Source of the DNA: a bacterium
GTDB lineage: Bacteria; Patescibacteriota; CPR2; UBA1875; JAJYID01
DNA length: 64,000 nucleotides
Reading direction: 5' to 3'
Assembly: GCA_021796415.1 (NCBI GenBank)
Contig: JAJYJC010000001.1
Span: forward strand, 18,742-82,741
In this document: one piece after another, positions 4,442 through 62,741 of the stretch
Position numbering within the stretch: the stretch's first letter is position 1
Layout: each line of letters begins with the position of its first letter
The notes under the pieces: model-generated
What the model was told of the DNA's origin: nothing
The model's input: the letters and a program-made list of their open reading frames with translations, nothing else
Database searches by the model: none
Program-made: the position numbers and the translations under genes

Positions 4442-4987
4442 TTAAAGCTCATTGTGCATTATCAGATAATCTTCAAAGTCCATTTTCTCACCCGTGCCGG
4501 CTGAAGTTTCCCCGTTTGGAAGATTTGTTTCTTCTATTTGCATCTGATATTTCAAGGTTTTCGGATAAGTTGCTACAACTCCGCGAGAGACATTAAAACT
4601 GTCGACTTTTACTTGGTCTGTTGTCAAATTGTACGCACCTGAATCCATTTTCAGTTGGTTGCTTTGGCATTCGAAATTTATGGTTGTGCTATCCATCATG
4701 GTTAAGCTTAGCGTATCACCGGTCGAGCAAAGGTCATCTCCTGTCGATAAATTTCCAGAGCCTGTAACACTTACAGCTTTAGCTTCTCTGGTGATTCTTG
4801 AGAAGGTTTCCGAGGCAAATCTGCCTTCATCCAGCATATTGGAGGTCTGCCGGTACTGCGACTGAAGCTTTTGGATGGTTATAAAAAATCCGACAGTCAA
4901 GGTTAGAACTAGAGTAAAAAGCGCCATACTGACAACCAGTTCGACAAGAGTCATCCCCTTGTTATTTAATTTAAATATCTTCATCAT
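4442..4987 (-). CDS. Type IV minor pilin / pseudopilin (prepilin-type N-terminal domain)
   Basis: The N-terminus is KGMTLVELVVSMALFTLVL (a class III signal). Start and stop overlap the neighbouring genes. Confidence 0.6.
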   Translation of the reverse strand: MMKIFKLNNKGMTLVELVVSMALFTLVLTLTVGFFITIQKLQSQYRQTSNMLDEGRFASETFSRITREAKAVSVTGSGNLSTGDDLCSTGDTLSLTMMDSTTINFECQSNQLKMDSGAYNLTTDQVKVDSFNVSRGVVATYPKTLKYQMQIEETNLPNGETSAGTGEKMDFEDYLIMHNEL

Positions 4988-5547: not shown

Positions 5548-6233
5548 TATTTCAACTCCGCACTGCCCGCCGGGCTTATTACAACTTGGTGCGACGAACC
5601 GCCGTTCGGATCAGCGAATGTAATAGTAACTTGGCCTAAATTAAGCGAATTGGTCGGACTCCAAATCTGAGTAGACTGATCTTTGCTCCAATCGCTTGGT
5701 GAAGACATTGCGTAAAATTTACCATATGGACTTGTGAAAAAAAGGTAAAGAGTACCAGAGATTCCATCCGATGCATTACTTGCTGTTACCTTAAGATTCT
5801 GTTTGAAGTTAACGGACGTAGAAGGATCGAGTGGCGTGGTAGTGCCTTGCGTTGGCGTTGAAGCGCCGGTGTCACAAAATGGAGTAACGCTAAGGGGTGC
5901 CGGTGTGGCGGAAGTGTCGATAGACGTCCCAAGCTGGAGTTTAATCATCTTTATAACTGTTGATCTGCCATCACAAACACCTCCGGGATCGCTAATTTTC
6001 TTGGTCGAAACCGCATCCACAAATGCCTGGCGCATCTGTGTCTGGAAGGTATTTGCCACATAATTGATGTAGTTTTCCTGCCTGGCAACCGTAAATCCGC
6101 TAAAGACCAAAATCATCAGAAAAGAAAGGATACCCATCACCACAACCATTTCAACCAGGGTAAATCCGTCCCGAGATGATATTCTTTTACTTAATCTTGA
6201 AACCCTCCGTAACATAATAAAAACCTTTATCAA
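5547..6233 (-). CDS. Type IV minor pilin (prepilin-type N-terminal domain)
   Basis: Contains DGFTLVEMVVVMGILSFLM, with the G|FTLVE cleavage/methylation motif. Confidence 0.6.
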   Translation of the reverse strand: MIKVFIMLRRVSRLSKRISSRDGFTLVEMVVVMGILSFLMILVFSGFTVARQENYINYVANTFQTQMRQAFVDAVSTKKISDPGGVCDGRSTVIKMIKLQLGTSIDTSATPAPLSVTPFCDTGASTPTQGTTTPLDPSTSVNFKQNLKVTASNASDGISGTLYLFFTSPYGKFYAMSSPSDWSKDQSTQIWSPTNSLNLGQVTITFADPNGGSSHQVVISPAGSAELK

Positions 6234-6236
6234 TTT

Positions 6237-6640
6237 GTCATTCCCGCGCAGGCGGGAATCCAGTCAGTCAATGTTATCATATAAATCTTTCCATTTGGGA
6301 TTAAAATCTTCTATAAGTTTCATCTTCCATTGTCTGTTCCACTTCTTGATTTGTTTTTCTCTTTTGATAGCCTCTTCAATGCTATTTGTTTCTTTAAAGT
6401 AAACAAGATTGTGGCATTTGTATTTTTTGGTAAAGCCTTCGATTAAATCATTTTTATGTTCATATGCTCTTTTCTTTAAATCTTTGGTAACTCCCGTGTA
6501 GAGCGTTCCGTTTCTGTCGCTGGCCATGATGTAGACATAGTAGGATTTCATTAATAATTATTTTAACTCAACTTTATACTTTATTTAAGCCTCACGGTTC
6601 TTGCTTAGCTTGACTGGATTCCCGCCTGCGCGGGAATGAC
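6237..6640 (-). mobile_element. GIY-YIG nuclease gene flanked by inverted palindromic hairpin repeats (copy 1, a REPIN-like unit)
   Basis: gtcattcccgcgcaggcgggaatcc sits at 6237-6261 and its reverse complement at 6616-6640. The entire unit is 100% identical to 10616-11019. Confidence 0.7.
6264..6551 (-). CDS. Stand-alone GIY-YIG nuclease (UPF0213/YhbQ-like), copy 1
   Basis: YYVYIMASDRNGTLYTGVT...RAYEHK...GFT is a GIY-YIG motif. The protein is 95 aa. Confidence 0.85.
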   Translation of the reverse strand: MKSYYVYIMASDRNGTLYTGVTKDLKKRAYEHKNDLIEGFTKKYKCHNLVYFKETNSIEEAIKREKQIKKWNRQWKMKLIEDFNPKWKDLYDNID

Positions 6641-6664: not shown

Positions 6665-7564
6665 TTATAAAAACATTCTACCATAAACAGCAAGAATTTG
6701 GACAAGAAAGAAAAAGCTTATAAAGGTTCCTGTCACCAGAAACGGCCCAAAAGGAATCTTTGACCCTAATTTTTTCTGGCCGCTAACTAAACTGATAGCA
6801 CCAAAAACTGCCCCCAAGATAAATCCAGCGTACAAGGCGACAATTATTCCCGGCCAGCCCAAAACAAGCCCCATAAAAGCAACAAGCTTAATGTCGCCAC
6901 CCCCCATCCATTTGCCTCCGGAAATCATCGCCAGAATATAGAAAAACCCTCCTGCGACAAGACCTGAGAGTAGATGGTCAATTAAATACTGATAATGGCC
7001 AAGCAGTGCAGTATTAACTCCCACAAATACAAGCCCCAAAACCAAAAGGGTATAAATAATTTCATTTGGAATGATCTGATGCTTTAAATCATAGACAAAA
7101 ATAGCAGCTAACCCGGCAGCAAAAACAAGCCAAAAGAGGAGGTTGAAAATACCCAACATTGACTGGATTCCCGCCTGCGCGGGAATGACAGAGGAAGGAG
7201 CGGGAATGACAGTGAGAGTAGAAGCAGAAAAATGAATAAAGAAACTACCTGCCTGCCCGGAATCCAATCCGGCACCTGATAAAAAATGAGGTCCGATGGC
7301 AGCAAACAAAAACCCCGTCGCCAGCTCCACTAACGGATATTGATCCGAGATATTTGCTTTGCAATATCTGCATTTTCCGCCCAAAACCAGCCAAGAGACC
7401 ACCGGAAAGAGATCATACCACTTAATTTCTTTTTTACATTTGGGGCAAAATGATCTGCCTCCCAAACCTCTGCCAATTTCCAAACGATAAATCAAAGCAT
7501 TCAAAAAACTGCCAATGATAAGGCCAGCTAGAAAAAATAAAGTCAAAACGATATAAAGATGCAT
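6665..7564 (-). CDS. pilD: Prepilin peptidase (A24 family) carrying an in-frame hairpin-repeat insertion
   Basis: Has an N-terminal CxxC...CxxC zinc domain (CPKCKKEIKWYDLFPVVSWLVLGGKCRYC) and GSFLNALIYRL. The segment [17 protein letters not shown] is encoded by the repeat at 7165-7210. Confidence 0.8.
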   Translation of the reverse strand: MHLYIVLTLFFLAGLIIGSFLNALIYRLEIGRGLGGRSFCPKCKKEIKWYDLFPVVSWLVLGGKCRYCKANISDQYPLVELATGFLFAAIGPHFLSGAGLDSGQAGSFFIHFSASTLTVIPAPSSVIPAQAGIQSMLGIFNLLFWLVFAAGLAAIFVYDLKHQIIPNEIIYTLLVLGLVFVGVNTALLGHYQYLIDHLLSGLVAGGFFYILAMISGGKWMGGGDIKLVAFMGLVLGWPGIIVALYAGFILGAVFGAISLVSGQKKLGSKIPFGPFLVTGTFISFFFLVQILAVYGRMFL

Positions 7565-7639: not shown

Positions 7640-8419
7640 TTAGCCGCCTAACTTTTGCAAGATATAATCCTTGAATCCCGTAACTCGCTCTATGTCGCTT
7701 GGATTCATCAGAAAAGGCTGCACATCTTTAGCAAGAGCATCAAAATCAAGCGTCTCAACCTTCGAAAAAAGCTGTTTCTTGATTTGCTTCTCGGAATATC
7801 CATGGGCTTTCTCCAGAAAAACATAGTCCGGCTCTGTTTTGCCCAATAAATAAGAAACATCATAAAAATCACGTCCCTTCTCTCGCTTTCTTTCCATGAT
7901 TGCAATAAGTTTCTGAGCCAAAATAACCGAGATGCTGTTCACTAATATTTTCCTGTAAACATCAAAGTTATTTAAAATATAAATTTCCGGCTTCACAAGC
8001 TCGCGCTTCAGCGTCGCATCAATCCGCACCAGAATCTTCTCCCCTTTCTGGCCGGATATACCATGTTTAAACAGTAAATCGGGAAACTTTATATAGCAAT
8101 GATATGCTTCTTTTTCTACGAAACGAAACTCTATCTCAAAGCCTTTAAGCTCCATCGTCTTTGCAGTTTTGTCAAGAAGTGTTTTGAAACCGTCGAAAGT
8201 AAGGCCAAAGTTGTCAAAGTCCAAATCCTCGGAAAAGCGCGAGCTGCCATACACTATTCTGATAGCTGTCCCTCCGATAAAGCTTAGCTTTTCGCTCTCA
8301 TTTTGCTGAAAAATGGAATCCAAAAGTTCATACTGCAGGTATTCGACCAAAGCAGCTTTTGGATTTTTTCCAAACACATCGCCTGGAAAATTCGTTTTAA
8401 TTTGCTCCATCGTTAGCAT
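7640..8419 (-). CDS. AbiEii-family nucleotidyltransferase toxin (type IV TA / abortive infection)
   Basis: Contains FIGGTAIRIVYGSSRFSEDLDFD, a DUF1814/AbiEii-type motif. Its start is adjacent to the stop of the upstream partner gene. Confidence 0.6.
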   Translation of the reverse strand: MLTMEQIKTNFPGDVFGKNPKAALVEYLQYELLDSIFQQNESEKLSFIGGTAIRIVYGSSRFSEDLDFDNFGLTFDGFKTLLDKTAKTMELKGFEIEFRFVEKEAYHCYIKFPDLLFKHGISGQKGEKILVRIDATLKRELVKPEIYILNNFDVYRKILVNSISVILAQKLIAIMERKREKGRDFYDVSYLLGKTEPDYVFLEKAHGYSEKQIKKQLFSKVETLDFDALAKDVQPFLMNPSDIERVTGFKDYILQKLGG

Positions 8420-9194: not shown

Positions 9195-9327
9195 TAAACC
9201 CGGGAGGACAATTTTTTTCATTCACCCATTTGCCAAGGGGCAGCCCTTTGCCAAGCTTGGCAAAAAATGACAAAAATAACATACACAAAATCAGCTTAAT
9301 GAGAGAGTTATCCCCTACATTCCTCTA

Positions 9328-9882
9328 TCACTCTTGATGGAAAATATCGCCAGCCGGAATAATACTAGTGTTAAAATTACATTTACATGTATCAGCAACA
9401 GTGCATACCCCTGTTGCTAAAAGTTTTGCCGCCGTTTCTTCCGTCACAACCCAAAGCCTATATTCGTTCGGTACCGAATACATATGCACATAACAAATAG
9501 TTCCACCGTTTTGAGCCTGGTTTGTAGGAGGGTGAGACGGATCTGGTAAATATTTATTTAGAGATTCACCGTTTTGTAACATGACATAAGCCTGCCTATC
9601 ATTGTTACTACCGGAAACCCCTTGATCAACACCAGGCGGCATACTCTGATTATCACCATAATATTTTTCTATATAAGTTTCTATACTTTTAGCGTCGTTT
9701 CTAAGCTGCGTATCTCTTGCTTGCTGCCTGGCAATAGCAATGGCCCCAATTATCAACGCGGCCAAAACAGCAATAATGGCCATTACTACAACCAATTCAA
9801 TAAGTGTAAAACCTTTTTTTGTACGAAGATTGACTCGCTTTTTAATATTTCCCATAACAACCACGGCGAGTAGCCTCGCCAT
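9328..9882 (-). CDS. Type IV pilin (major pilin-like, PilA family)
   Basis: Contains KKGFTLIELVVVMAIIAVLAALIIGAIAIARQQ, a canonical type IVa pilin N-terminus. There are C-terminal Cys residues. An alternative start lies at 9855. Confidence 0.7.
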   Translation of the reverse strand: MARLLAVVVMGNIKKRVNLRTKKGFTLIELVVVMAIIAVLAALIIGAIAIARQQARDTQLRNDAKSIETYIEKYYGDNQSMPPGVDQGVSGSNNDRQAYVMLQNGESLNKYLPDPSHPPTNQAQNGGTICYVHMYSVPNEYRLWVVTEETAAKLLATGVCTVADTCKCNFNTSIIPAGDIFHQE

Positions 9883-10475: not shown

Positions 10476-10615
10476 CAAATTCTAATCTCTAAATGCTAAA
10501 TGCTAAACAAATCATAAATTTTTAAATTCAAATTATTTAAACACTAATTCGGGATTTATCAAGTATTGCGCCAAGTATTTTCATTGCAACTCATTTTCAA
10601 AAATCATTATCCCCT

Positions 10616-11019
10616 GTCATTCCCGCGCAGGCGGGAATCCAGTCAGTCAATGTTATCATATAAATCTTTCCATTTGGGATTAAAATCTTCTATAAGTTTC
10701 ATCTTCCATTGTCTGTTCCACTTCTTGATTTGTTTTTCTCTTTTGATAGCCTCTTCAATGCTATTTGTTTCTTTAAAGTAAACAAGATTGTGGCATTTGT
10801 ATTTTTTGGTAAAGCCTTCGATTAAATCATTTTTATGTTCATATGCTCTTTTCTTTAAATCTTTGGTAACTCCCGTGTAGAGCGTTCCGTTTCTGTCGCT
10901 GGCCATGATGTAGACATAGTAGGATTTCATTAATAATTATTTTAACTCAACTTTATACTTTATTTAAGCCTCACGGTTCTTGCTTAGCTTGACTGCATTC
11001 CCGCCTGCGCGGGAATGAC
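10616..11019 (-). mobile_element. GIY-YIG nuclease gene flanked by inverted hairpin repeats (copy 2, identical to copy 1)
   Basis: Identical to 6237-6640 except for one mismatch in the right hairpin (gcattc versus ggattc). The flanking sequences differ. Confidence 0.7.
10643..10930 (-). CDS. Stand-alone GIY-YIG nuclease, copy 2
   Basis: The protein is 100% identical to copy 1. Confidence 0.85.
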   Translation of the reverse strand: MKSYYVYIMASDRNGTLYTGVTKDLKKRAYEHKNDLIEGFTKKYKCHNLVYFKETNSIEEAIKREKQIKKWNRQWKMKLIEDFNPKWKDLYDNID

Positions 11020-18057: not shown

Positions 18058-18137
18058 GTCATTCTGGCTTGTCCAGAATCAATTTTTAAGATTTAAGGAA
18101 AAGGATTCCGGCCTCCTAGATGTCGCCAGAATGACGA
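18058..18137. repeat. Composite hairpin repeat (two units)
   Basis: gtcattctggcttgtccagaatc followed by ggattccggcctcctagatgtcgccagaatgac. Confidence 0.7.
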
Positions 18138-20709: not shown

Positions 20710-22416
20710 TCAGTTTATTACGGTCCCCAGCACTTCATTGAAGTAGCCGTTCCACATCACCCGCTGGGAAGACATCACTTTAGCAGGCGTCCCTTTGGTC
20801 GGATCCGGATCTCCGGTCCAAGCCTGAACCTCAACCGGTCCGCCCATCACGCCGGGGAACATCGGTGTTACCTTGCCGCCGGCTTTGATAAATCCGGGAT
20901 TGTCGGAGGTATTGGGCTCGACAGCGCCGCCGACGATTATATGGTAATAGACATCATCGGAGGCCGAGGGATTGGCCACCAAAACCCAGTTGAGTGAACC
21001 GGGGCTTTGCTGGTCGTACCAAGTCCAGTGGTAATCACTGGATAAAGCCGAGGACGAGTAGCCGGGCACTTCTTCGAACGAAGGGCCGGCAATGACTCTC
21101 TGCGAGGCAATCAAATTCGGAGATGTTCCGGAACATGCCCCATACTGGTCAAAGACCGCGCTGCAGCTTTTGACCTCGACCGGCCCGCCCATCACGCCGG
21201 GGAACATCGGTGTTACCTTGCCGCCGGCTTTGATAAATCCGGGATTGTCGGAGGTATTGGGCTCGACAGCGCCGCCGACGATTATATGGTAATAGACATC
21301 ATCGGAGGCCGAGGGATTGGCCACCAAAACCCAGTCGGTCATCCCCGCACTCTGCTGGTCGTACCACGTCCAGAGATAATCTCCAGAAAGATCGCCAGCC
21401 GTTATGCCAGGAACCTCATTGAAGGCATTGCCGTAATTTGATAACACCCTCTGTGACGCCATGACATTGACAGGTGTTGTCTTGCTGCTGTCGGTCCATG
21501 CCTGGACTTCGACAGGACCACCTATTTTCCCAGGGAAGGTGGGGGTGATATTCTGGTGGCCCAGTAGCCATCCTGAAGAACAATTGGGTCCTGTACCGTG
21601 ATAGCATGCTGTTCCCGGATCCTGGCCGGCGATCGTGATTTCGTAATAGATCATCGAGTCGTTCGGGTTGGCTATCAACACCCAGTCGGTCATCCCTGAG
21701 CTTTGCTGGTCGTACCAGGTCCAGTAGTAGTGATCGGAGAGGCTCGATTCGTCTGTCCCCAACACTTCTTCAAGCGAGTTGCCTCCCTTGGGCCAGAGAA
21801 TGCGCTGGCTGACGATTCCTTTGTCTCCGGTCATAGACGATGCTGTGACCGGTCCACCCATAATGCCGTATCGCGGCGTGATGGTCTGTCCCGGACCGAT
21901 AGCTCCGCCATTGGGCAGAGCTTTATTACTGCCGGCAATGCTTAACTGGAAGTTAAGCGGAGCGGCAGCGCTAGCCGGATTGGACAGAAGTACCCAGTTG
22001 TCGCCACCTGCATCGTCGTACCAGGTCCACAGATAGTTCCGTACCGTTGGAGCGTTTTCGACATTAATAGTTACCTGGTTAGAAGAACAACCGCTTTGCG
22101 CGGGGACAAAATATTCGTAATAAGTCCCCGGGGTTGATGGCGGCGTTACACTATATGTAACGGGAGTGCTATCAAGTCCACCCCAGCCACCGCCTCCTCC
22201 CCAGCTGTTATACTCAAGATAAGCAGCTGAGGGATTTGAAGCCACCGTAATTGTAACTGACTGACCAGGGGCCACCGTAACCGACGGATTTGCTTCCGCC
22301 GTCGGTGCCGTAAAGGTCAGTGTGGGGCATGTAGCCGCCATCGCCGTTGAGGCGAAAGCAGCCAGAGCCATCACCGCAATGAGTGCGGCGATGAATATGA
22401 CGAATAACTTCTTCAT
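20710..22416 (-). CDS. Secreted repeat protein with five ~90-aa W-x-W-Y-D repeats
   Basis: Has a signal peptide (MKKLFVIFIAALIAVMALAAFASTAMA). WTWYDQQS...DWVLVANP modules recur. An internal ~160-nt segment is duplicated perfectly (20855-21000 and 21179-21340). GC is elevated. Confidence 0.5.
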   Translation of the reverse strand: MKKLFVIFIAALIAVMALAAFASTAMAATCPTLTFTAPTAEANPSVTVAPGQSVTITVASNPSAAYLEYNSWGGGGGWGGLDSTPVTYSVTPPSTPGTYYEYFVPAQSGCSSNQVTINVENAPTVRNYLWTWYDDAGGDNWVLLSNPASAAAPLNFQLSIAGSNKALPNGGAIGPGQTITPRYGIMGGPVTASSMTGDKGIVSQRILWPKGGNSLEEVLGTDESSLSDHYYWTWYDQQSSGMTDWVLIANPNDSMIYYEITIAGQDPGTACYHGTGPNCSSGWLLGHQNITPTFPGKIGGPVEVQAWTDSSKTTPVNVMASQRVLSNYGNAFNEVPGITAGDLSGDYLWTWYDQQSAGMTDWVLVANPSASDDVYYHIIVGGAVEPNTSDNPGFIKAGGKVTPMFPGVMGGPVEVKSCSAVFDQYGACSGTSPNLIASQRVIAGPSFEEVPGYSSSALSSDYHWTWYDQQSPGSLNWVLVANPSASDDVYYHIIVGGAVEPNTSDNPGFIKAGGKVTPMFPGVMGGPVEVQAWTGDPDPTKGTPAKVMSSQRVMWNGYFNEVLGTVIN

Positions 22417-22846: not shown

Positions 22847-24013
22847 ATGGGCCTATCTATCGGAATAGTCGGTCTGCCGAATGTCGGCAAAAGTACGCTT
22901 TTCAACGCCTTGACAAAAAACCAAGCGGAAGCTTCAAATTACCCCTTTTGCACCATCGATCCAAATGTAGGCATTGTGGTGGTCCCGGACGAACGGTTGC
23001 AAAAGCTGGCTGAAGTTATTCCAACCCAGAAAATCGTCCCGGCAATCGTTGAATTTATCGATATTGCGGGAATAGTGAAGGGCGCAGCAGAAGGCGAAGG
23101 CCTCGGCAATAAATTTCTGGCCAATATACGCGAGTGTGACGCGATTGCTGAAGTCGTACGTGTATTTTCAGATACAAATATCACTCATGTGGCCGGAAAA
23201 GTTGATCCAACCTCCGACATGGAAACCATTAAAATGGAACTGGTGCTTTCCGATCTCGAAACAGTGGGGAAAAGGGCAGCCAAGCTGGCTAAAGAAGTAA
23301 AAGGCGATCCAAAACTCAAAGAAGCTTTGGATTTAGTCCAAAAAATTCAGACCGAACTTGAGAAAGGAAGGGCAGCCCGAGAATTGGATTTGTCTGAAAA
23401 AGATATCGAGAAAATTAAAGACTTAAACCTGCTTACTTTAAAGCCGCATATTTATATTTTCAATGTCGATGAAGAAAATCTTACCTCTCATGTCATTCCC
23501 GCGCAGGCGGGAATCCAGGACATTATTGGTATAGATTCCCGCCTGCGCGGGAATGACAAAGATGACAGAAATGACAAAAATAGTGGAGAAAATAAAGTCG
23601 CTCAAAATGACAACAACCATGTCTTAATTTCAGCAAAGATTGAATCTGAACTAAACGAGCTTTCCGAGGAAGAAAAGAAAGAATATCTTTCAGAGCTGGG
23701 ACAATCTGAGACGGGATTAAACCGGCTAATCAAGATAGGATATGATCTGCTTGGCCTCCAAACCTACTTCACAGCCGGAGAAAAGGAGATCAAGGCATGG
23801 ACCATTCATAAAGGGGACAAAGCGCCGCAAGCCGCCGGCGTCATCCATACCGACTTTGAAAAAGGGTTCATCAAAGCCGAGACTGTTTCCTGGCAGGATC
23901 TAGTTGAACATAAAGGCTGGGCAGGCGCTAAAGCGGCTGGCAAAGTCCGCCTCGAGGGCAAAGATTACACCGTCCAAGACGGCGATGTGATGGTGTTTAA
24001 GTTTAATGTTTAG
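22847..24013 (+). CDS. ychF: Ribosome-binding ATPase YchF (Obg-like GTPase) carrying an in-frame hairpin-repeat insertion
   Basis: Contains [18 protein letters not shown] (G1) and a TGS domain at the C-terminus. The roughly 45-aa insert [10 protein letters not shown]...[11 protein letters not shown] is encoded by repeats at 23492-23556. Confidence 0.9.
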
Positions 24014-24044: not shown

Positions 24045-24400
24045 GTCATTCCCGCGCAGGCGGGAATCCAGCCTAAATAATTTCATTATACAAATCTCTC
24101 CATTCAGGATTAGATTTTTCGATTAGTCGCAGCTTCCATCTTCTTTCCCATTTCTTAAGCCGTTTTTCTCGTTTTATTGCTGCTTCAGCTGTCTGATGTT
24201 CTTCGAAGTAAACTAAAAGGTGCGTTTGATATTTATTACTGAATCCCCCAACAAGATCATTTTTGTGTTGGTAAACTCTTTTAATTAGCTCAGAGGTAAC
24301 CCCAATATAAAGAGTCCCATTTTTCTTACAGGCCAAAATATAAACCCAAAATTTTTTCATATCTCACAACTTTCTGGATTCCCGCTTGCGCGGGAATGAC
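24045..24400 (-). mobile_element. GIY-YIG nuclease gene flanked by inverted hairpin repeats (copy 3)
   Basis: gtcattcccgcgcaggcgggaatcc sits at 24045-24069 and ggattcccgcttgcgcgggaatgac at 24376-24400. Confidence 0.7.
24073..24360 (-). CDS. Stand-alone GIY-YIG nuclease, copy 3 (divergent paralog)
   Basis: Contains FWVYILACKKNGTLYIGVT...RVYQHK. Confidence 0.85.
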   Translation of the reverse strand: MKKFWVYILACKKNGTLYIGVTSELIKRVYQHKNDLVGGFSNKYQTHLLVYFEEHQTAEAAIKREKRLKKWERRWKLRLIEKSNPEWRDLYNEII

Positions 24401-33042: not shown

Positions 33043-33385
33043 TCATTCTGGCTTGGCCAGAATCTATCTAAGAATTTCTCCATACAAATCCTTAAATTCA
33101 GGATTTTCCTTTCTGATTAAATCCAATTTGTCTCTTCTGTTCATGTCTTTAATTTGTTTCTCTCGAACAATAGCTTTTATAGCTGTATCAAATACCTCAA
33201 AATAAACTAATTTATGAATATGATACCTTTTCGTAAATCCTTCAACCAGCTCATTTTTATGCTGGTAAACCCTTTTTCTGAGGTCATTAGCTATACCGGC
33301 GTAGAGCGTTGGTCTTTCGTTTGTCATAATATATGTGAAGTATTGTTTATTCATAGGCTTTGATTCTGGCCAAGCCAGAATGACG
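33043..33385 (-). mobile_element. GIY-YIG nuclease unit flanked by type-B hairpins (copy 5), inserted between recA and recX
   Basis: gtcattctggcttggccagaatc sits at 33043-33065 and gattctggccaagccagaatgac at 33363-33385. Confidence 0.7.
33064..33354 (-). CDS. Stand-alone GIY-YIG nuclease, copy 5 (divergent paralog)
   Basis: Contains YFTYIMTNERPTLYAGIAN...RVYQHK. Confidence 0.85.
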   Translation of the reverse strand: MNKQYFTYIMTNERPTLYAGIANDLRKRVYQHKNELVEGFTKRYHIHKLVYFEVFDTAIKAIVREKQIKDMNRRDKLDLIRKENPEFKDLYGEILR

Positions 33386-33409
33386 AGAAGGAAGGATGCT
33401 TAGGTCTAG

Positions 33410-38162: not shown

Positions 38163-38921
38163 TCAAATTAATTTTTGTTGTTTAGGTTGATTGTCATTAT
38201 TATTTAAATTTTCTTCTTCAATTCTCTTCAGAATCTTGGGGATTTTATTGAAATCTGCTTGCAGTGTTTTCTTCATGCTTCCGTTATAAAGCGCGACTGC
38301 GGGATGATATAGTGCCAAAAATACTTGTTTTCGGCCACCCTTTGCCTGCCCCACACTTGAAATAGTGCGTGGGTCATTCTCATCCCCCCCTTTGTCATCC
38401 CCGCCTTCTCTTTTGTCATTCCCGCGCAGGCGGGAATCCAGTCCTTCAAAATGCAATTCCTTGCGAAATGCATTGCCATGAGCCTTTGAAATCTGTAATG
38501 ACGGGAAAAATCTGTTCATGGCATGCCGGCCTAGAAATACGATTAACTTTGGATCAATAAGTTCAATTTGCTTTTTCAAATACGGCCAGCACATTTGCGC
38601 CTCTTCCGGCAATGGATCGCGGTTGTTCGGCGGCCTGTGCTTCAAAACATTTGCTATGTAGACATCTTTTCGCTGCCAGCCTAAGCTTTGAATCAATTCA
38701 GTTAGAAGCTGTCCCGCTCGGCCGACAAATGGTTCGCCTTGCTGGTCTTCATCCTTGCCCGGCGCCTCGCCGATAAACATGACGTCAGCCGTTTCGCTGC
38801 CGACTCCCGGCACATCCTTGGTTTTTGTCTTAAACAGCGAACATCGCTCGCAAGCAGAAATAAGCTTATTCAAAGCCGAAATACTATCAGCACCTAAAAT
38901 ATCCTCGTCAGTTATTTTCAT
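38163..38921 (-). CDS. Family 4 uracil-DNA glycosylase carrying an in-frame hairpin-repeat insertion
   Basis: Contains [32 protein letters not shown]. The insert [19 protein letters not shown] is encoded by repeats at 38373-38439. Confidence 0.8.
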
Positions 38922-39067
38922 TTTGTTTGTCAGCGTAAATCCGCGTATATTCCGCGTGAATCTGCGAATTATTTATTAGAGAACTTCAAAACGTTGGCTC
39001 AAGTATAGCAAATTCAAAGGTATATGTCAATGACATTTCTGCCCGCAATGGGACAGTTTCTTGGCAG

Positions 39068-40039
39068 CTAAATCTCGCTGATTATTTCAAACCCTTTGAA
39101 ACTCCCCGTGATTGCCAGGCCAATAATTTTGCCTTTTACGAGACCTTTTTGGCGAATCTTCTTAGCCGTTTCATTCAAAGTCGCTCCTGAGCCAACGGCA
39201 TCATCTATCAGAAGCACATTTTCATAAACCCCGCTATCTTCCACCACGATCGTTTCGCGGGCATTTGCCACCCTATCTTCAATTTTATTCAATGTCTTTT
39301 GCGGCACAATGATGGGAGTTTTGACCTTTGTGATTGAGAGCCTTCGCATGTCCAAACTCAAATGTTTTTCCAACTGCTTCATCAGCTGAAGTTCTCTTTT
39401 GACCGTCGGCGGAATAAATCCCACGCCGTCAATTTTATAGTCTTTAATCAGTTTCAAAATAGCGGGCTTCACCATATCTGCAATTTCATTGATCATTTGC
39501 CTATCCTGGCTTTGTTTTGCAAAAAGCAGCAGCTGCCCTAGCTTGGTTTTGCCAAATATTTCAAGGCTGTAAAAATCCAGATAGAAGACGCGATCGAGAG
39601 CTACATCGCGAAATGTAGATTTCATCTTGTACATGCCGTCAATCAGGCCGTTTTTTCTGTATTTTTCGTAGTATTTAAGCTTTGAGATATAAGTTTGCGC
39701 CATTTTTACCGTATCCAAACCTCGTTCTTGGCACCAATAAGCAAACCCTTCCCAGCCGCTCATCATTGCACCAAGCGGAGTAATATAGAGGAAATTCCTG
39801 TCAATAATCTTTTTAGCCGCTTCATCAATGGCAATGCCATCGGCCGTGAACTCAGCTTTTTGGGAAATAGAATAGAAAACCTTCGGCGGCTTGCCGGATT
39901 TAGTGATTTGACCGTTTTCAAGCAATTTTCTCAAAATCTTGTGCGTCGCCTGCCTGGAAATACCCAAATATTCCGTAAGTTCATTAACGGTTGTTTGATT
40001 TCTCTCAAGATGTTTAATTATTTTTTCTGAATTATTCAT
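39068..40039 (-). CDS. wHTH plus phosphoribosyltransferase-domain protein (PurR-like regulator)
   Basis: Has an N-terminal HTH (TVNELTEYLGISRQATHKILRKL) and a C-terminal PRTase motif (VLLIDDAVGSGATL). Confidence 0.4.
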   Translation of the reverse strand: MNNSEKIIKHLERNQTTVNELTEYLGISRQATHKILRKLLENGQITKSGKPPKVFYSISQKAEFTADGIAIDEAAKKIIDRNFLYITPLGAMMSGWEGFAYWCQERGLDTVKMAQTYISKLKYYEKYRKNGLIDGMYKMKSTFRDVALDRVFYLDFYSLEIFGKTKLGQLLLFAKQSQDRQMINEIADMVKPAILKLIKDYKIDGVGFIPPTVKRELQLMKQLEKHLSLDMRRLSITKVKTPIIVPQKTLNKIEDRVANARETIVVEDSGVYENVLLIDDAVGSGATLNETAKKIRQKGLVKGKIIGLAITGSFKGFEIISEI

Positions 40040-40124
40040 ATAAGCAACATTATATCATAGTTTACAGTTCACTGTAAACTGTAAACTTTTCAAATAAAAA
40101 ATATACTTTGTCTGTCATTCCGAG

Positions 40125-40167
40125 CGACTTCGCGGAACGACGAGTCGAGGAATCCCTTGAAAGATCA
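40125..40167. repeat. Hairpin repeat at the left border of the high-GC island
   Basis: gtcattccgagcgacttcgcggaacgacgagtcgaggaatccc. Confidence 0.7.
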
Positions 40168-40268
40168 TGTTATCTGATCTCCAACTTCTAATCTTTAACA
40201 AATGGAAAAGGCGGTTCCTTCAACTGAGTTTTATCTCAGCTCAAGTAACCGCCCGTTTTGGCTTTGGC

Positions 40269-41063
40269 TTAATTTGCCAGATCTAATCCGGCCTTTCGAA
40301 AAGCCCGCGCCATTGCGGTTTCTGTCTCTCCCTCCAGTGAAGAAACCGGGGTACCCAACACCGTGTCGGCAATATACCCGACTACGCGGTTGGGGTCGGC
40401 GCCCATAAAGAAGTCGGGGTCTCTCGAGACCTCCTCGAGATGGGCCTTCACCCTCGCTCGACCACACTGTAGGATGATGTGATCATCCAGACGATCGAGC
40501 GGAAGCCCCGCGACCTTGGCCATGAACTGACGAGTCAACTCCTCGTCGCCCCGGAAGGCAATGAAAAGCTCCCGTGGCAGACCATTCTCCTTCTCACCGG
40601 CATTGTCCGGTTTGTAGGAAATTATTTGTCCGCCATAGTCCCTCTCATCTACAAACTGGCTGGCGATATTCTCCGCCCAGCCAATTGGAGCAGAAACGAG
40701 GACCCAAGTTTCGCCACCCGATCCTCCGCTTGTAGAAGCGTCAGAGAGCTGGCGAACCTCGGACCCAAACTCGACATGGAAGCTCGGCCACCGCTTGGCA
40801 CCGGATCCGTTGCTATACTGCTGGACCAGCACCAGTTCCTTTTGAGGCTCGCCCTCGTAAGGAACCAGCACGACTCCTTCATCCACGATAGCCACATGGA
40901 CTTTATTCAAGTTGCCATCGGGCGCGGAAGTACTGGCAAGTAGTCCGGTGTTGTGCCGCGTCATCCCCGAATGGGGATTGAACGGAACTTGGCCATCGTT
41001 GACCGCAATCCCGTTCTCGACGCTGTTGCCACGGAGCGTGAGGGCGATATGTGTGGTTTTCAT
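40269..41063 (-). CDS. Hypothetical protein on the high-GC island (no recognisable domain)
   Basis: GC-rich codon usage. GGAGGTGA lies 6 nt before the ATG. Its start overlaps the stop of the upstream gene. Confidence 0.5.
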   Translation of the reverse strand: MKTTHIALTLRGNSVENGIAVNDGQVPFNPHSGMTRHNTGLLASTSAPDGNLNKVHVAIVDEGVVLVPYEGEPQKELVLVQQYSNGSGAKRWPSFHVEFGSEVRQLSDASTSGGSGGETWVLVSAPIGWAENIASQFVDERDYGGQIISYKPDNAGEKENGLPRELFIAFRGDEELTRQFMAKVAGLPLDRLDDHIILQCGRARVKAHLEEVSRDPDFFMGADPNRVVGYIADTVLGTPVSSLEGETETAMARAFRKAGLDLAN

Positions 41064-41578
41064 AGCCACTCACCTCCCCCCTGCTCGACCTTCTGCAAGG
41101 CCAAGCGAGCTTTCCGCTCCTCGGGGCTCTCCACCTGCCACTCTGTTCCGGTCCACATGTACCACGTGGAGGCGTACTTAGAGTTGAGGCGGAAAGTCGC
41201 GCCCGGCGCGACAATCGCGAGAATTTCCTCGCCGCTATTCGTCCGGCCCGCTTGCCCAAAGGCAATGGTGCCGGATAAAATAGCTTCGACGCCCTGTGCG
41301 TCAAAGATGCCATATGACCGGTAACGGTCGTAGCCGCCCACGGCGTTGATCACCGCGAGACACCGACCCTCGTCGTCCCAGTTACCGCGGACTAGGACAA
41401 CGCCATCATCCGTTTTTTTGACCCGAACATCAGGGCCCTCCCCGATAATGGGGATAATCCCTTCTTCGCGACCTCGACCAGCCTCTCCAAGCCGGACCTC
41501 TGACAACGGTCCGGCTTCGGTATCAAGCCCCAAGTGAGATGGGGCTGACCCCGGGTATTCTATCTGATAGAGCTTCAA
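41060..41578 (-). CDS. Hypothetical protein on the high-GC island
   Basis: AGGAGG precedes a TTG start. Coding sequence overlaps the downstream gene (translational coupling). Confidence 0.45.
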   Translation of the reverse strand: MKLYQIEYPGSAPSHLGLDTEAGPLSEVRLGEAGRGREEGIIPIIGEGPDVRVKKTDDGVVLVRGNWDDEGRCLAVINAVGGYDRYRSYGIFDAQGVEAILSGTIAFGQAGRTNSGEEILAIVAPGATFRLNSKYASTWYMWTGTEWQVESPEERKARLALQKVEQGGGEWL

Positions 41579-41993
41579 AACTCCTCCTTTGGTTGTATTT
41601 TTTTCAAATTGCCTGCATATGAGATTTCATATGCAAATTGTTTGATGAAAATTTTGGATTTGGGGAGGCACCGAAGTGCCTCCCCATTTGGCTTTTCGGG
41701 GCTTTTGTTTTTGAGCCGTCTCGGCATCAAGGCAGCTGCCTGACCGACTGCCACTCTTTAAAGCCCCTCTTGACTGATGAGGTCTCGCCCTCCTTAGAAA
41801 ACACCGCCATTTTTAGGCATTTTCTAAGGATGGGTCCCCTCTCTAGCTGTCAGTCGCGGCATCCCCAGCCACCATAATCATCACCTGCAACTCTCCGATG
41901 AGAGCCACATGGTGACTAGATGACCGCCTTCATTACTGAAGGCTTAACCCAGGGTGGGGTTACGGAGCTCCCGGCGGGTGCCCTGAACTCGCC

Positions 41994-42890
41994 TTAGAGC
42001 GAGTTCAGCTTCCCGAGCGCCTCATCCAGCCGTGAAGCCGGAATCGACACTCGGAAAGGCGCCCCCGAAGGCAGGCCGAAGACCTCGACCAAGCTCACGT
42101 CTTTGCGACGCGTAGCTATGGTTAGGTAGTCCTCGCCTGCCCGGAGGTTCTGCGACACCACCACCGCGAACGGAGCAAGGCCCTGACCGGCCAGCAAAAG
42201 CTGGGTCCGGTCATAGTTGCGCTCGCTCTCGCGAGCATCAACCACCGCCACATTACCGGTTACCTGGTAAGTGGCAGAAAGCCGCTCCGTCTCCGCCTGG
42301 ATCGCCGCATACCTTTCGGCGGCGGATTCCAGGACGGAGCGCTGATTCTCGTCGCCGAGGAGCCAGTAAAACGCGGCCTCGCGGACAGAATCGTCCGAAA
42401 GGTCGGCCTTACAGGCCCGCTCGATCAGGTCCGCTTTCTTCGAAAGCGAGCCCTGACGAGTGTCGGCCGCGGTGGCGTCAGCCGCCAAGGGTGTCCAGTT
42501 ATCCTCCTCGCAGAGGATGCTGGCACAGGAGAGAGCTTCTTCGTCAATGATGAATCTCTCATCATCATCGACAAGCCCCTCCCACCCATGGTGGTGGTCA
42601 TACCACCGGTAGAGCTTGTCGCCCAGGCGTTCGACGAAATCGAGCGTCTGCTGCGGATTACGGTTATTCACCGCAATATCCACAACAAACACCGCCTCGA
42701 CCTCCTCGACCTCGACCTTATCCAGCGTAAATGGCTGGACAAAAGTCACCAAGGTTTCAGCTTGGCCCCCAAATTCTTTCCAGGAGTCATGCCAATCCCT
42801 CGCGACCAGCACCGCCGAAACGATGCCGTCGAGGTCGCCGTGAGCGACGATGAGGGTACGACGCTGAATCGCACCCGCATCTCTTGCCAT
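41994..42890 (-). CDS. DHH-motif phosphoesterase-like protein on the high-GC island
   Basis: Contains LIVAHGDLDGIVSAVLV (DHH motif I-like) and YRWYDHHHGW (DHH motif III-like). There is a strong RBS (aaaggaggtgatatatATG). No DHHA1 GGGH motif was seen. Confidence 0.5.
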   Translation of the reverse strand: MARDAGAIQRRTLIVAHGDLDGIVSAVLVARDWHDSWKEFGGQAETLVTFVQPFTLDKVEVEEVEAVFVVDIAVNNRNPQQTLDFVERLGDKLYRWYDHHHGWEGLVDDDERFIIDEEALSCASILCEEDNWTPLAADATAADTRQGSLSKKADLIERACKADLSDDSVREAAFYWLLGDENQRSVLESAAERYAAIQAETERLSATYQVTGNVAVVDARESERNYDRTQLLLAGQGLAPFAVVVSQNLRAGEDYLTIATRRKDVSLVEVFGLPSGAPFRVSIPASRLDEALGKLNSL

Positions 42891-43099
42891 ATATATCACC
42901 TCCTTTAAAAAGGTGAGGCCCGATCATGCCGCTTATAAAACGCGGTTCTGTATCATGTCGGGATTGGTAATGGCTTCATAAATAAGAATTGATTCTCACT
43001 CACAAAGCCACTACCAAATCAATATGGCTTTTGTTTTCTAACTTTCTCTCAAATTACCTGCCCGCAAATGATTCACGAGCAAATTGTTTGATGAAATGA

Positions 43100-43222
43100 G
43101 ATTCTTCGTTACACTCAGAATGACACGTCTAGTTTGTTTCTTATTATTCAATTGTCAAATTGCGTTTTCTGGAACCCGGATTCTGGTCAAGCAACGTCAA
43201 ACGTTGTTATGCCAGAATGACG
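43100..43222. repeat. Two hairpin repeats at the right border of the high-GC island
   Basis: gattcttcgttacactcagaatgac sits at 43100-43124. ggattctggtcaagcaacgtcaaacgttgttatgccagaatgac sits at 43177-43222. Confidence 0.65.
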
Positions 43223-43737
43223 AATTATTTCTACTCTCCAGATCCTTGTGGACGAGTGAGCACAAAGCTTTTTTCATAGGCCTTACATTCACTTCTGCCT
43301 CCTACCCTCCACAAGTCATCTTGAGACTAGTTTTGGTCTTTCGATATACCTTTTAGACATCTATCAGCCGAGCCGTCTCCTCGGATCCGCACCTTCCTTA
43401 GTTCACCTCCATCGCGTAAAGCTATGGAAGTCAGTCGGACTGTTTGGATCACCCCGGTTCGGGCTTAACCGCTAAGCCATGCGGTGGCCGAAATCTATTA
43501 GGTAATGTGGTTCAATGTTCGTCAACCTTGACTAAAAGTCGTTTTGATTGGTTGATGTGCATATAGTACCACGGCGCTAACGCTCTGTCAATACTTTCTT
43601 GTCTTTTCATGTTTTCTTTTTCGTGCCTAGAATAGCAATTTCATACTGCTTTGTCAGAATGTACTTGACAGATATGTACGGGAAAAGTAAAATGGAAAAT
43701 GGAAAAGGTTATGTAAAACATTCAAAAGAAAAGGTAA

Positions 43738-47678: not shown

Positions 47679-48287
47679 TTATTTTAGGATTTTGAGCTCG
47701 GCTTTTAGGGTTTTTAGGTCAAAAACGGCAAAACTGGCGCGGCCGAACTGGCCGGCTACTTCTCCGGGATTAATCAATTGGGTTTTGCCAATCTGTTCCT
47801 CCCAAGGAGTGTGAGTGTGGCCGTAGAATACGGTGTCGTATCGTTCGGACTCGGCTAATTCTTTAGCCTTTCGATTGTTATGGACATAGGCAATTTTACG
47901 CTTTTCAAGCACGACTTCGCCGAAATCCGGGGCAAAAACCACATTCTCCGGAAAGAGTCCACCACCCCTGTCATTCCCGCCCTCCTTTGTCATTCCGAGC
48001 GACTTCGCGGAGCAACAAGCCGAGGAATCCCTTTCGCCTTTATCAGTACCATCTGGGCAGGCGGATAAACTCCGGCGGGAATCCAGTCCATTTTTCAATT
48101 CAAAATCTAAGTTCCCCAAGTTTAAGTAAAGAATTTCAAATGACTTTGCCACTTCGCTCACTGTGTCTAAATCGCCAATATCCCCGCAGCAAAAGCCAAT
48201 TTTAACTCTTTCAGCTTTAATAATCTCCGCCGCTTCCCGCCAGCGCTCTAAGTTGTCATGCACATCGCTAAAAACCGCTATTTTCAT
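47679..48287 (-). CDS. YfcE-like metallophosphoesterase carrying an in-frame composite hairpin-repeat insertion
   Basis: Contains MKIAVFSDVHDN...CCGDIGD...GHTHTP. A roughly 45-aa insert LDSRRSLSA...GMTKEGGNDRGGG is encoded by repeats at 47970-48089. Confidence 0.75.
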   Translation of the reverse strand: MKIAVFSDVHDNLERWREAAEIIKAERVKIGFCCGDIGDLDTVSEVAKSFEILYLNLGNLDFELKNGLDSRRSLSACPDGTDKGERDSSACCSAKSLGMTKEGGNDRGGGLFPENVVFAPDFGEVVLEKRKIAYVHNNRKAKELAESERYDTVFYGHTHTPWEEQIGKTQLINPGEVAGQFGRASFAVFDLKTLKAELKILK

Positions 48288-62652: not shown

Positions 62653-62685
62653 TTTCAAATCCCAATTAATCAATCCCAAAAAAAT

Positions 62686-62708
62686 GATTCTGGCCAAGCC
62701 AGAATGAC
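62686..62708. repeat. Hairpin repeat between groES and groEL
   Basis: gattctggccaagccagaatgac. Confidence 0.7.
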
Positions 62709-62741
62709 AGGATGGAATTAGTAGATTAGTATCATTAGTAA

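Follow-up and report, generated by a model that had tools for sequence, protein, structure and literature searches.

A GC-rich islet in a Patescibacteria chromosome made of two separately inherited cassettes, a divergent DHH phosphoesterase gene and a conserved two-gene pair with a possible role in nucleotide-signal conflict

Patescibacteria have tiny genomes, their immunity is poorly understood and most of their accessory genes are unannotated. In this context, three adjacent GC-rich genes carried by a stretch of 64,000 nucleotides (nt) from a member of this phylum (GenBank assembly GCA_021796415.1, contig JAJYJC010000001.1, positions 18,742 to 82,741; hereafter the window, to which coordinates refer unless a locus is named) raise a simple question: do they form one system acquired as a single block, as proposed in an earlier note made from the sequence, or an assemblage of separate parts, and what could these parts do? 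All three genes lie on the minus strand. Gene A (41994-42890, ATG start, 298 amino acids (aa)) encodes a DHH-like protein and is its own transcription unit, while gene B (41060-41578, TTG start, 172 aa) and gene C (40269-41063, ATG start, 264 aa) overlap. Each of them is preceded by an AGGAGG-type ribosome-binding site (AAAGGAGGTGATATATATG for A), the sizes, the strand and the strong Shine-Dalgarno sites being as first described. The overlap of B and C is also present, but it amounts to 4 nt (ATGA) with the 264-aa ATG start of C, and the 10 nt initially reported are obtained only with an alternative GTG start at 41069, which gives a protein of 266 aa. Taken as a whole, the locus is on balance best read as an acquired composite islet of two cassettes with a proposed function in nucleotide-signal conflict. 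The cassettes were drawn from a GC-richer mobile gene pool, the first being gene A, standing alone with a structured 3' spacer, and the second the B-C pair.

The composition of the segment sets it apart from its surroundings. GC content is 55-63% over 40.2-43.0 kb and about 42% in the surrounding DNA; in 400-nt windows, it is 0.505-0.630 over 40200-42999 and 0.37-0.44 on either side, and the two 1-kb bins of 41-43 kb are the highest of the 64 kb (0.557 and 0.580). At third codon positions (GC3), the values are 0.71 for A, 0.66 for B and 0.63 for C, against 0.37-0.56 for eight neighbouring genes (those of RecA, RNase J, UDG, a MarR-phosphoribosyltransferase fusion (MarR-PRT), the 23S-IVP-family protein (IVP), TrmB, a 919-aa protein and PNPase). 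The GC island is thereby confirmed by both profiles and by GC3. A similar excess was found elsewhere, homologues being GC-richer than their low-GC hosts also in the loci L007, L009, L011, L012 and L087, and homologues of A being so wherever the host is AT-rich. For B-C, GC3 exceeds that of the host by 0.2-0.3 in L011 and L012, and in L087 the GC content of the pair lies about 0.15 above that of the DNA around it. The GC3 excess, the like excess in other low-GC hosts and a site content that varies among close relatives bear out the horizontal acquisition that had been suggested.

The three genes do not form a single conserved unit. The homologue lists of A (72 proteins), B (69) and C (101) have a single contig in common, the window's own 108-kb contig. 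Sixty A loci, including the 58 A-family loci of a metagenome scan, hold neither B nor C, and A occurs together with B or C only on two contigs identical to the window (L073, L074). A and B-C are therefore independently inherited cassettes, so that the observations of the earlier note stand and its interpretation holds in part, with two cassettes in place of one three-gene system. B and C themselves are adjacent and overlapping in every chromosomal locus in which both are intact (L001, L003, L011, L012, L077, L082, L087). On a phage contig (L013/L014), B overlaps a following 138-aa open reading frame (ORF), read as a divergent C-like gene, which is missed by tblastn with C. Natural B-C fusions exist (P0269, P0273, P0297), as do fusions of a B-like 'D' domain to C (P0226, P0204), a tandem B-B protein (P0263) and proteins of 600-860 aa that begin with two B-like domains. 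Because of this conserved adjacency, translational coupling and fusion, B and C would almost certainly act as a single complex.

The surroundings of the site are chromosomal and typical of Patescibacteria, with RecA, LexA, RNase J, UDG and the MarR-PRT fusion on one side, and the IVP, TrmB, the 919-aa methyltransferase-domain protein, a metallophosphoesterase and PNPase on the other. Two relatives, L006 (GCA_027425075.1) and L085 (GCA_027336405.1), which are 93-96% identical to each other, align to window positions 43601-43229 and 38921-34028 (UDG to RecA) with 75-78% nucleotide identity. Both hold A at the same site (70% amino-acid identity); 3' of it, the place that B, C and MarR-PRT have in the window is taken by genes for a 129/131-aa protein, an 85-aa protein and a DUF4143 ATPase. 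In L085, the content between the syntenic blocks is a 123-aa gene, A, the 129-aa gene, the 85-aa gene and the DUF4143 ATPase gene. Synteny thus delimits a hypervariable segment (39015..43230) with different content between kept flanks, namely a non-coding-RNA-like element, IVP and TrmB on one side and UDG, RNase J, LexA and RecA on the other. Since the relatives keep these flanks and A with other cargo downstream, the content between IVP/TrmB and UDG turns over at the level of cassettes, which makes this site a hypervariable hot spot. This turnover is illustrated by L085, which differs from L006 by the GC-rich 123-aa gene, located between two copies of a leader, GGGTCTCRCCTTAAAAAGGAGGTGAAAGATATGGCA, a difference that indicates a probable recent gain or loss of a cassette through recombination at the leader. 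The leader, of 38 nt including the ribosome-binding site and the start codon, lies at 7515-7552 and 7971-8008 of L085 and has a single counterpart at 4144-4181 of L006.

Repeated leaders with hairpins, specific to each lineage and 50-115 nt long (e.g., GAGUAGCG...CGCUACUCA), also bracket accessory cassettes in every lineage examined. They are found directly upstream of the ribosome-binding site, and the cassettes that they bracket are B-C, Csx3 and unknown genes. Copies lie at 7883-7998, 9288-9402 and 10115-10231 of L003, at about 5850-5905 and 7460-7520 of L077, at about 4680-4740 and 8380-8440 of L082, and at about 7340-7470 and 8930-9040 of L087; the leaders of these four loci gave no Rfam match. 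Their arrangement suggests that cassettes may generally be swapped by recombination between repeated leader sequences.

Genomic islands are frequent in Patescibacteria (PMC12455944), and the two properties by which they are classically recognized, compositional deviation and variable presence among relatives, were found here; an integrase with a border tRNA gene or direct repeats was not, no tRNA gene being present in the window and no integrase among the neighbours. Like defence islands and other variable hot spots, the locus combines conserved flanks, variable content and GC-anomalous cargo, and the same hot spot of L085 carries a candidate defence gene (the DUF4143/PDC-S01-type ATPase). It differs from them by its size of about 4 kb, by the lack of an integrase and by its leader-bracketed cassettes (hairpin, conserved upstream motif and ribosome-binding site), which are atypical of hot spots as described. 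The resemblance to integron arrays lies in one- or two-gene cassettes swapped at one site, with a partly palindromic repeat between them. However, no integrase-type gene, and hence none of the IntI type, was detected with Pfam in the 10 larger ORFs of 33.4-50.6 kb, no GTTRRRY/RYYYAAC core sites were seen by eye in the inter-cassette repeats, the ribosome-binding site is part of these repeats, which stand upstream of the ORFs, and the cassettes are not obviously promoterless.

Both cassettes carry the same island-specific upstream element. Two homologous upstream motifs, one with a perfect palindrome, had been pointed out from the start, and they are indeed present: the shared motif TTCAnnnGCAAATTGTTTGATGAAA occurs at 41626-41650 and 43072-43096, and its 17-nt core TTTCATCAAACAATTTG has exactly two copies in the 64 kb, both in the island. 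The first copy of the element (41605..41651, minus strand, TTTCATCAAACAATTTG ... CAGGCAATTTG) is located 27 nt upstream of the B start, contains the palindrome TGCATATGAGATTTCATATGCA (41614-41635) and has homologues ahead of another gene in L006 (5887-5954) and L085 (9704-9771). The second copy (43050..43097, minus strand) lies about 160 nt upstream of the A start, as the element also does ahead of A in L006 (3911-3927) and L085 (7282). In the layout of the element, block 1 (TTTCATCAAACAATTTG) and block 2 (CAGGYAATT) are separated by a variable spacer, and block 2 is followed by an A-rich stretch and then by the ribosome-binding site. When three mismatches are allowed, the motif gives two matches, a number that is not significant (reached in 21 of 100 shuffles); the exactness of both copies, their position upstream of the two units and two occurrences each in L006 and L085 nevertheless speak against chance. 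Since it precedes A and B-C in the window, and A and the 85-aa gene in L006 and L085, the same leader serves different cargo. A canonical sigma-70 promoter was tried and rejected, the consensus scan not calling the motif. From its position, the element may act as a promoter or operator, which would result in co-regulation of the two cassettes.

Between A and B lies a spacer of 342 nt (41652..41993, minus strand), GC-rich and exceptionally structured, which ends in a hairpin, GGGGAGGCAC-UUCG-GUGCCUCCCC (41661-41686). Its minimum free energy is -161.4 kcal/mol, with a z-score of -7.7 on the minus strand versus -4.65 on the plus strand. The core of the spacer is kept 3' of A in L006 and L085, and 3 of the 22 predicted pairs are compensatory in a two-sequence alignment. 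It contains a long irregular hairpin (P1 GACUGA/UCAGUC), kept by compensatory changes in both relatives, and has no Rfam match. Such a structure could serve as a site of processing or recombination, act as an attenuator or represent a stable RNA. A hammerhead ribozyme was rejected on reading: CUGAUGAG is present on the plus strand of the spacer, but the remainder of the core is missing, and the C of this sequence is not kept in L006.

What could the two cassettes encode? For A, the Pfam DHH family (PF01368) matches with 19.9 bits (E value 1e-3), below the gathering threshold of 28.1 bits, and a precomputed PF01368 match is found for 20 of its 72 homologues. When 35 homologues are aligned, the invariant residues are exactly the catalytic set of DHH enzymes: H17, G18, D19 and D21 (motif I), D71 (motif II), D98-H99-H100 (motif III) and D143 (motif IV). 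The DxD of motif I lies in HGDLDG, with D19 and D21 aligned to DFDG of PggH; D71 is within VVDIAVNN, D98-H99-H100 aligns to DHHH of PggH, and D143 is within AADTR, motif IV being assigned by position alone. In the C-terminal domain, which is DHHA1-like but divergent, FGLPSGAPFR stands where DHHA1 has GGGH, with S275 and G276 invariant; A contains no GGGH, no histidine in this motif and gives no Pfam DHHA1 match. The alignment and Pfam thus uphold both the DHH motifs and the missing GGGH that had been read in the sequence. The best matches of A in a PDB profile search, both marginal, are PggH (7d62, E value 4e-3), which is pGpG-specific, and an archaeal PAP phosphatase (8a8k), and its distant relatives are named 'oligoribonuclease NrnB/cAMP/cGMP phosphodiesterase' by JGI. 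From these features, it is concluded that A is a putatively active yet divergent DHH phosphoesterase, which forms a new and divergent branch within a known family of enzymes. It is similar to the NrnB/PggH-type DHH-DHHA1 nanoRNases (COG2404; PggH being from Vibrio cholerae) in size (about 300 aa), two-domain layout and intact motifs I-IV, with PggH as the top PDB profile match. It differs from them by the marginal level of this similarity, the sub-threshold DHH match, SGAPFR for GGGH, and a variable GC-anomalous islet instead of a housekeeping context. A would hydrolyse short oligonucleotides or nucleotide-derived signals in an NrnB/PggH-like manner, with the ring-nuclease MAD and NrN enzymes as possible functional analogues. 

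The genomic contexts of the A family are diverse. One homologue is found in a GC-rich islet of about 6 kb with an rve-type integrase, between rpsP and khpA-trmD (L007/L008), and another on an archaeal contig (L009). The TrmB-A synteny shared with this archaeon was dropped as a part of the cassette, TrmB being just 31% identical and host-like in GC there, and the assignment of a 156-aa protein of L007 to CYTH was dropped without Pfam support. In four loci (L024-L027), the A homologue is directly followed by the gene of a protein of about 510 aa with a C-terminal 2H/LigT phosphoesterase domain (7957-9486 in L024), a pairing that may represent a second phosphoesterase partner and bear on the substrate of the A family. 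Five A homologues (P0023, P0033, P0045, P0003, P0020) have a Cys-rich tail (PCQCGSGEPWxxCxxNSPYCG) resembling SEC-C-type metal-binding motifs, and the A of the window lacks this tail.

As for B and C, their predicted structures are confident: B (predicted local distance difference test score 91, predicted template modelling score 0.85) is all-beta with a C-terminal helix, and C (local score 89) has a beta N-domain (about residues 1-155) and a helical C-domain. B is unusually conserved, with 52-83% identity among the full-length homologues of the first search, and its invariant Gly, Arg, Tyr and Lys residues cluster in two lower-confidence loops (GExGRGR, VGxYDRxRSY, FGQAGR). C has analogous loops (YSPGSGxKRWPSF, GGSG); its N-domain and its C-terminal tail (..AxRKAGL) are conserved, and its helical C-domain is variable. 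A, B and C are all acidic, and no signal peptide or membrane segment was seen in them on reading by eye. The family is small, the B profile retrieving 326 clusters among 1.84 billion representatives. Searches of Pfam, PHROGs, PADLOC and NCBIfam with A, B and C gave the sub-threshold DHH match of A as the sole match, PADLOC-DB 2.0 giving none for the three proteins at E values up to 1 and none for the B and C homologues of L082. PDB sequence profile searches with B, C and two large B-domain proteins (P0320 and P0294) returned nothing; the predicted folds of B and C have no match among solved structures, nor that of B among the predicted viral structures of BFVD, and Pfam detects no domains in ten proteins of 590-860 aa with B-like domains. 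From these properties, B-C could be a cytosolic acidic heteromer whose conserved, flexible Gly/Arg/Tyr/Lys-rich loops would bind a phosphate-bearing ligand.

The distribution of B-C is patchy, with two loci among 185,579 species (one genome per species). The pair occupies unrelated chromosomal sites: in L001 it follows the genes upstream of groES, in L003 it is part of a cluster of cassettes that terminates at a tRNA gene, and in L011, L012 and L077 tRNA genes precede it. It also follows rplS in L077 and rpsI in L082. Its mobile carriers are an IMG/VR phage contig, in which it stands among the genes of NrdD, a primase, an RNA ligase and a helicase, and an element of 70% GC that has B at 79-80% identity, only a stub of C, a DUF932 gene and a clamp-like gene. 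B has no match by tblastn in the INPHARED phages or PLSDB plasmids, and the C profile finds nothing in IMG/VR. Directly 3' of B-C, L077 (7372-7419) contains a type III hammerhead-ribozyme-like motif with the full CUGAUGAG...CGAAA core and three stems, which scores 31.3 bits against RF00008 (E value 0.01), below the gathering score of 48.5; in L079 (about 6560-6600), the stub of C is followed by a copy truncated at its 5' end, and no motif of this type is present in the window.

A hint about function comes from the neighbours. In L082-L084, the gene order is Csx3, TM-SAVED, a pVip-like (viperin-like) radical SAM protein, B-C, two PDC-S01-type ATPases and HicA, with PADLOC E values in L082 of 3.6e-25 for Csx3, 4e-20 for SAVED, 1.6e-9 for the radical SAM protein and 1.9e-115 for PDC-S01; this Csx3 matches PDB 3WZH (E value 2e-9). 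A 180-aa protein of L082 was considered as a DEDDh exonuclease and dropped, having neither Pfam support nor a PDB sequence match. In a separate AT-rich lineage (L087-L089), a P-loop protein and a 102-aa Csx3-like protein (weak PF09620 match; PDB 6YUD at an E value of 5e-3 in L087) precede B-C inside a GC-rich islet. The accessory or defence-type setting attributed to the locus is supported by this position of B-C within the defence island of L082 and beside Csx3-family genes in L082 and L087. Csx3 corresponds to Crn3, the ring nuclease of cyclic tetra-adenylate (cA4); this signal is also broken down by DHH-DHHA1 enzymes, which are found alongside CorA effectors (PMC8284326). Hence, a class of enzymes that removes signals adjoins B-C in 3 of about 11 contexts: DHH here, Csx3 in L082 and Csx3-like in L087. 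Because a signal-degrading phosphodiesterase adjoins the pair in three lineages, B-C could be a sensor and effector, or else a sequestering module, of a nucleotide-based pathway of phage-host conflict, for which the neighbouring phosphodiesterase would be an interchangeable off-switch. This tie is guilt by association, a lead and not a demonstration. The turnover of nucleotide signals that had been conjectured for the locus gains some support from neighbourhoods in which Csx3 takes the place of DHH, and it remains a conjecture, detached from a fixed three-gene unit.

As with the DHH enzymes of type III CRISPR systems (MAD and the CorA-associated DHH nucleases), a DHH phosphoesterase stands here beside candidate conflict genes, and Csx3 holds the equivalent place beside B-C in other lineages (PMC8284326). 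However, the sequence relationship considered is that of the DHH superfamily, A has no membrane segment on reading by eye whereas MAD is membrane-associated, and Cas10, CorA, CARF and SAVED are absent from the window neighbours examined. The Pfam search covering Cas10, CD-NTase, CARF and SAVED was negative for the 10 larger ORFs of 33.4-50.6 kb, smaller ORFs and the rest of the window being unscanned; SAVED was seen only in L082, and the Csx3 family only in the L082 and L087 loci. In L082 and L087, B-C directly adjoins a Csx3-family gene as do effectors activated by cyclic oligoadenylates (cOA) in Csx3/Crn3 ancillary modules, but the window has no Csx3, and B and C are unlike any known cOA effector or sensor (no CARF, SAVED, HEPN or similar domain).

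Overall, a role of B-C in phage-host conflict tied to nucleotide signals is considered the most likely, with modest confidence. The more specific proposal is tentative and less probable than not: B-C would be an as yet undescribed two-protein module of new folds that senses, executes or sequesters a nucleotide-derived immune signal in Patescibacteria and their phages, with interchangeable phosphodiesterases (a GGGH-less DHH enzyme here, Csx3 elsewhere) and leader-bracketed, swapping cassettes. Several points weigh against the preferred reading of the locus as a whole. B and C have no homologue of known function, the four family databases being empty for them. A relationship between B and the N-domain of C is merely hinted at by hhalign (E value 4e-3, probability 8%) and is not claimed as homology. 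The Csx3 neighbourhood concerns 2 of about 11 distinct B-C contexts, the others giving no functional hint, and no signal synthase (Cas10 or CD-NTase) was found by Pfam among the 10 larger ORFs around the islet. The window locus shows no integrase, att site or tRNA gene, and its shared element is missed by the consensus sigma-70 scan. Finally, a branch of the A family at about 30% identity is found in conserved chromosomal synteny; because this distant branch looks housekeeping, A could simply be a nanoRNase.

Whatever the function, the locus is a concrete, reproducibly assembled case of cassette turnover at a hot spot, in which a misleading apparent three-gene operon is resolved into its true units. 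This isolates B-C as a strongly conserved pair of phages and mobile elements, with predicted folds without structural match and recurrent ring-nuclease-type neighbours. If B-C is a nucleotide-signal effector or sponge, it would represent a new protein family in cyclic-nucleotide immunity and extend the reach of this immunity into the candidate phyla radiation. If not, it is still a useful, well-delimited family with models, fusions and genomic contexts.

Among the other explanations, the best surviving one, although rather unlikely, is that B-C is a toxin-antitoxin or abortive-infection pair without nucleotide signalling, and A an unrelated nanoRNase-type enzyme that shares the hot spot. Indeed, B and C are two small co-transcribed genes with an ATGA overlap, as in type II toxin-antitoxin systems, their distribution is sporadic and they are carried by mobile elements; the palindrome upstream of B could be an autoregulatory operator, HicA is close by in L082, and the housekeeping-like branch of the A family would fit a nanoRNase. 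However, no toxin or antitoxin domain is recognized in B or C by Pfam, NCBIfam or PADLOC, both proteins are large and strongly conserved for such a pair, B/C fusions would be unusual, and the recurring Csx3 adjacency would be a coincidence.

It is still less probable that the islet is degraded phage or mobile-element cargo with an anti-defence function, in which A would destroy host immune signals and B-C would sequester them or inhibit an effector. In its favour, viruses and mobile elements are known to employ ring nucleases (PMC8284326), a foreign origin is indicated by the GC excess, and B-C is located in the early or nucleic-acid-metabolism region of a phage as well as in a mobile element of high GC. 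Such a scenario has to accommodate a window locus without phage or integrase genes around it, an A gene retained by the host at the same site in diverged relatives (70% identity), and the absence of any A homologue in the INPHARED phages and PLSDB plasmids (tblastn) and in IMG/VR (profile).

The single three-gene system bounded by hairpin repeats, i.e., the initial interpretation, is contradicted and has become improbable. Adjacency, common strand, common GC excess and the motif upstream of both transcription units speak for it, but A and B-C are found together nowhere outside the genome of the window, close relatives keep A and replace B-C by other genes, and the hairpin repeats are genome-wide. 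Regarding these repeats, hairpins do lie near both ends of the islet: a palindromic element at the left edge (40112..40158), which matches L006 3829-3875 and has a relative at 47988-48040 of the window, and two palindromes at the right edge (43100..43222) that belong to the same genome-wide family. They do not mark the borders of the island, because this family is spread over the whole window, the GTCATTC...GAATGAC palindromes having dozens of copies, one of them within the UDG gene, and the D4/D7 family (GATTCTGG..CCAGAATGAC) copies at 18058, 22696, 27505, 33042, 33361, 50837, 61828, 62196 and 62685, among others.

Could A, B and C be ordinary native genes, GC-rich through amino-acid composition or expression level? 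This is very unlikely. GC at second codon positions is somewhat raised (0.41-0.48 in A, B and C versus 0.27-0.37 in the neighbours) and GC3 of B-C is about host-like in L001 and L003, but the GC excess of the island is not merely an amino-acid effect, since GC3, which reflects synonymous sites, is raised too, by 0.15-0.3 here and in four other low-GC hosts. The patchy distribution (two loci among 185,579 species representatives), B at 79-80% identity in the 70%-GC element and the differing content of near-identical strains likewise go against native genes, and this explanation is largely contradicted. As for an assembly chimera, in which a high-GC contig would have been joined into a low-GC genome, the composition steps are sharp at both edges, but window positions 39034-43670, 38614-42306, 40117-41659 and 40670-41649 are each matched at 100% identity by one of four contigs, which come from four other samples and assemblers and of which the first two span both composition steps, and the relatives hold A at the same site, so that this possibility can be set aside and the island is genuine.

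Further non-coding elements were found in and around the islet. The B-C operon probably ends at a terminator read from the sequence at 40204..40259 (minus strand; GGCGGUU...AACCGCC then UUUUCC), which a simple scan misses because of a nested hairpin in the loop. On the other side, a near-consensus promoter, TTGACA-17-TACTAT (43591->43563), precedes a conserved non-coding element (43225-43591, minus strand). This element shares 77% identity with L006 3358-3711 and L085 6740-7093 and has a variable hairpin inserted in its middle; its fold z-score is -2.4, and it has no Rfam match. It could represent a small RNA, or the transcript of A could begin with it as a long 5' leader. Rfam returned nothing credible for the whole window or, more permissively, for 39.9-43.8 kb. 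Several short palindrome families (GTCATTCCCGCGCAGGCGGGAATC, GTCATTCTGGCTTGGCCAGAATC and others) are scattered through the window, with copies at 1904-1941, 6234-6271, 10613-10650, 23489-23526, 38412-38449, 18058-18087, 33361-33393 and 62685-62717, for example, and one copy falls within the UDG reading frame (38163-38921) and codes there for an in-frame insertion. In addition, an exact duplicate of 300 nt is present at 6236-6535 and 10615-10914, 4.4 kb apart, with two 62%-identical copies at 24045 and 28031, and three tandem units of about 345 nt, 74-85% identical, occupy 20828-21738, in the GC-rich 21-kb bin.

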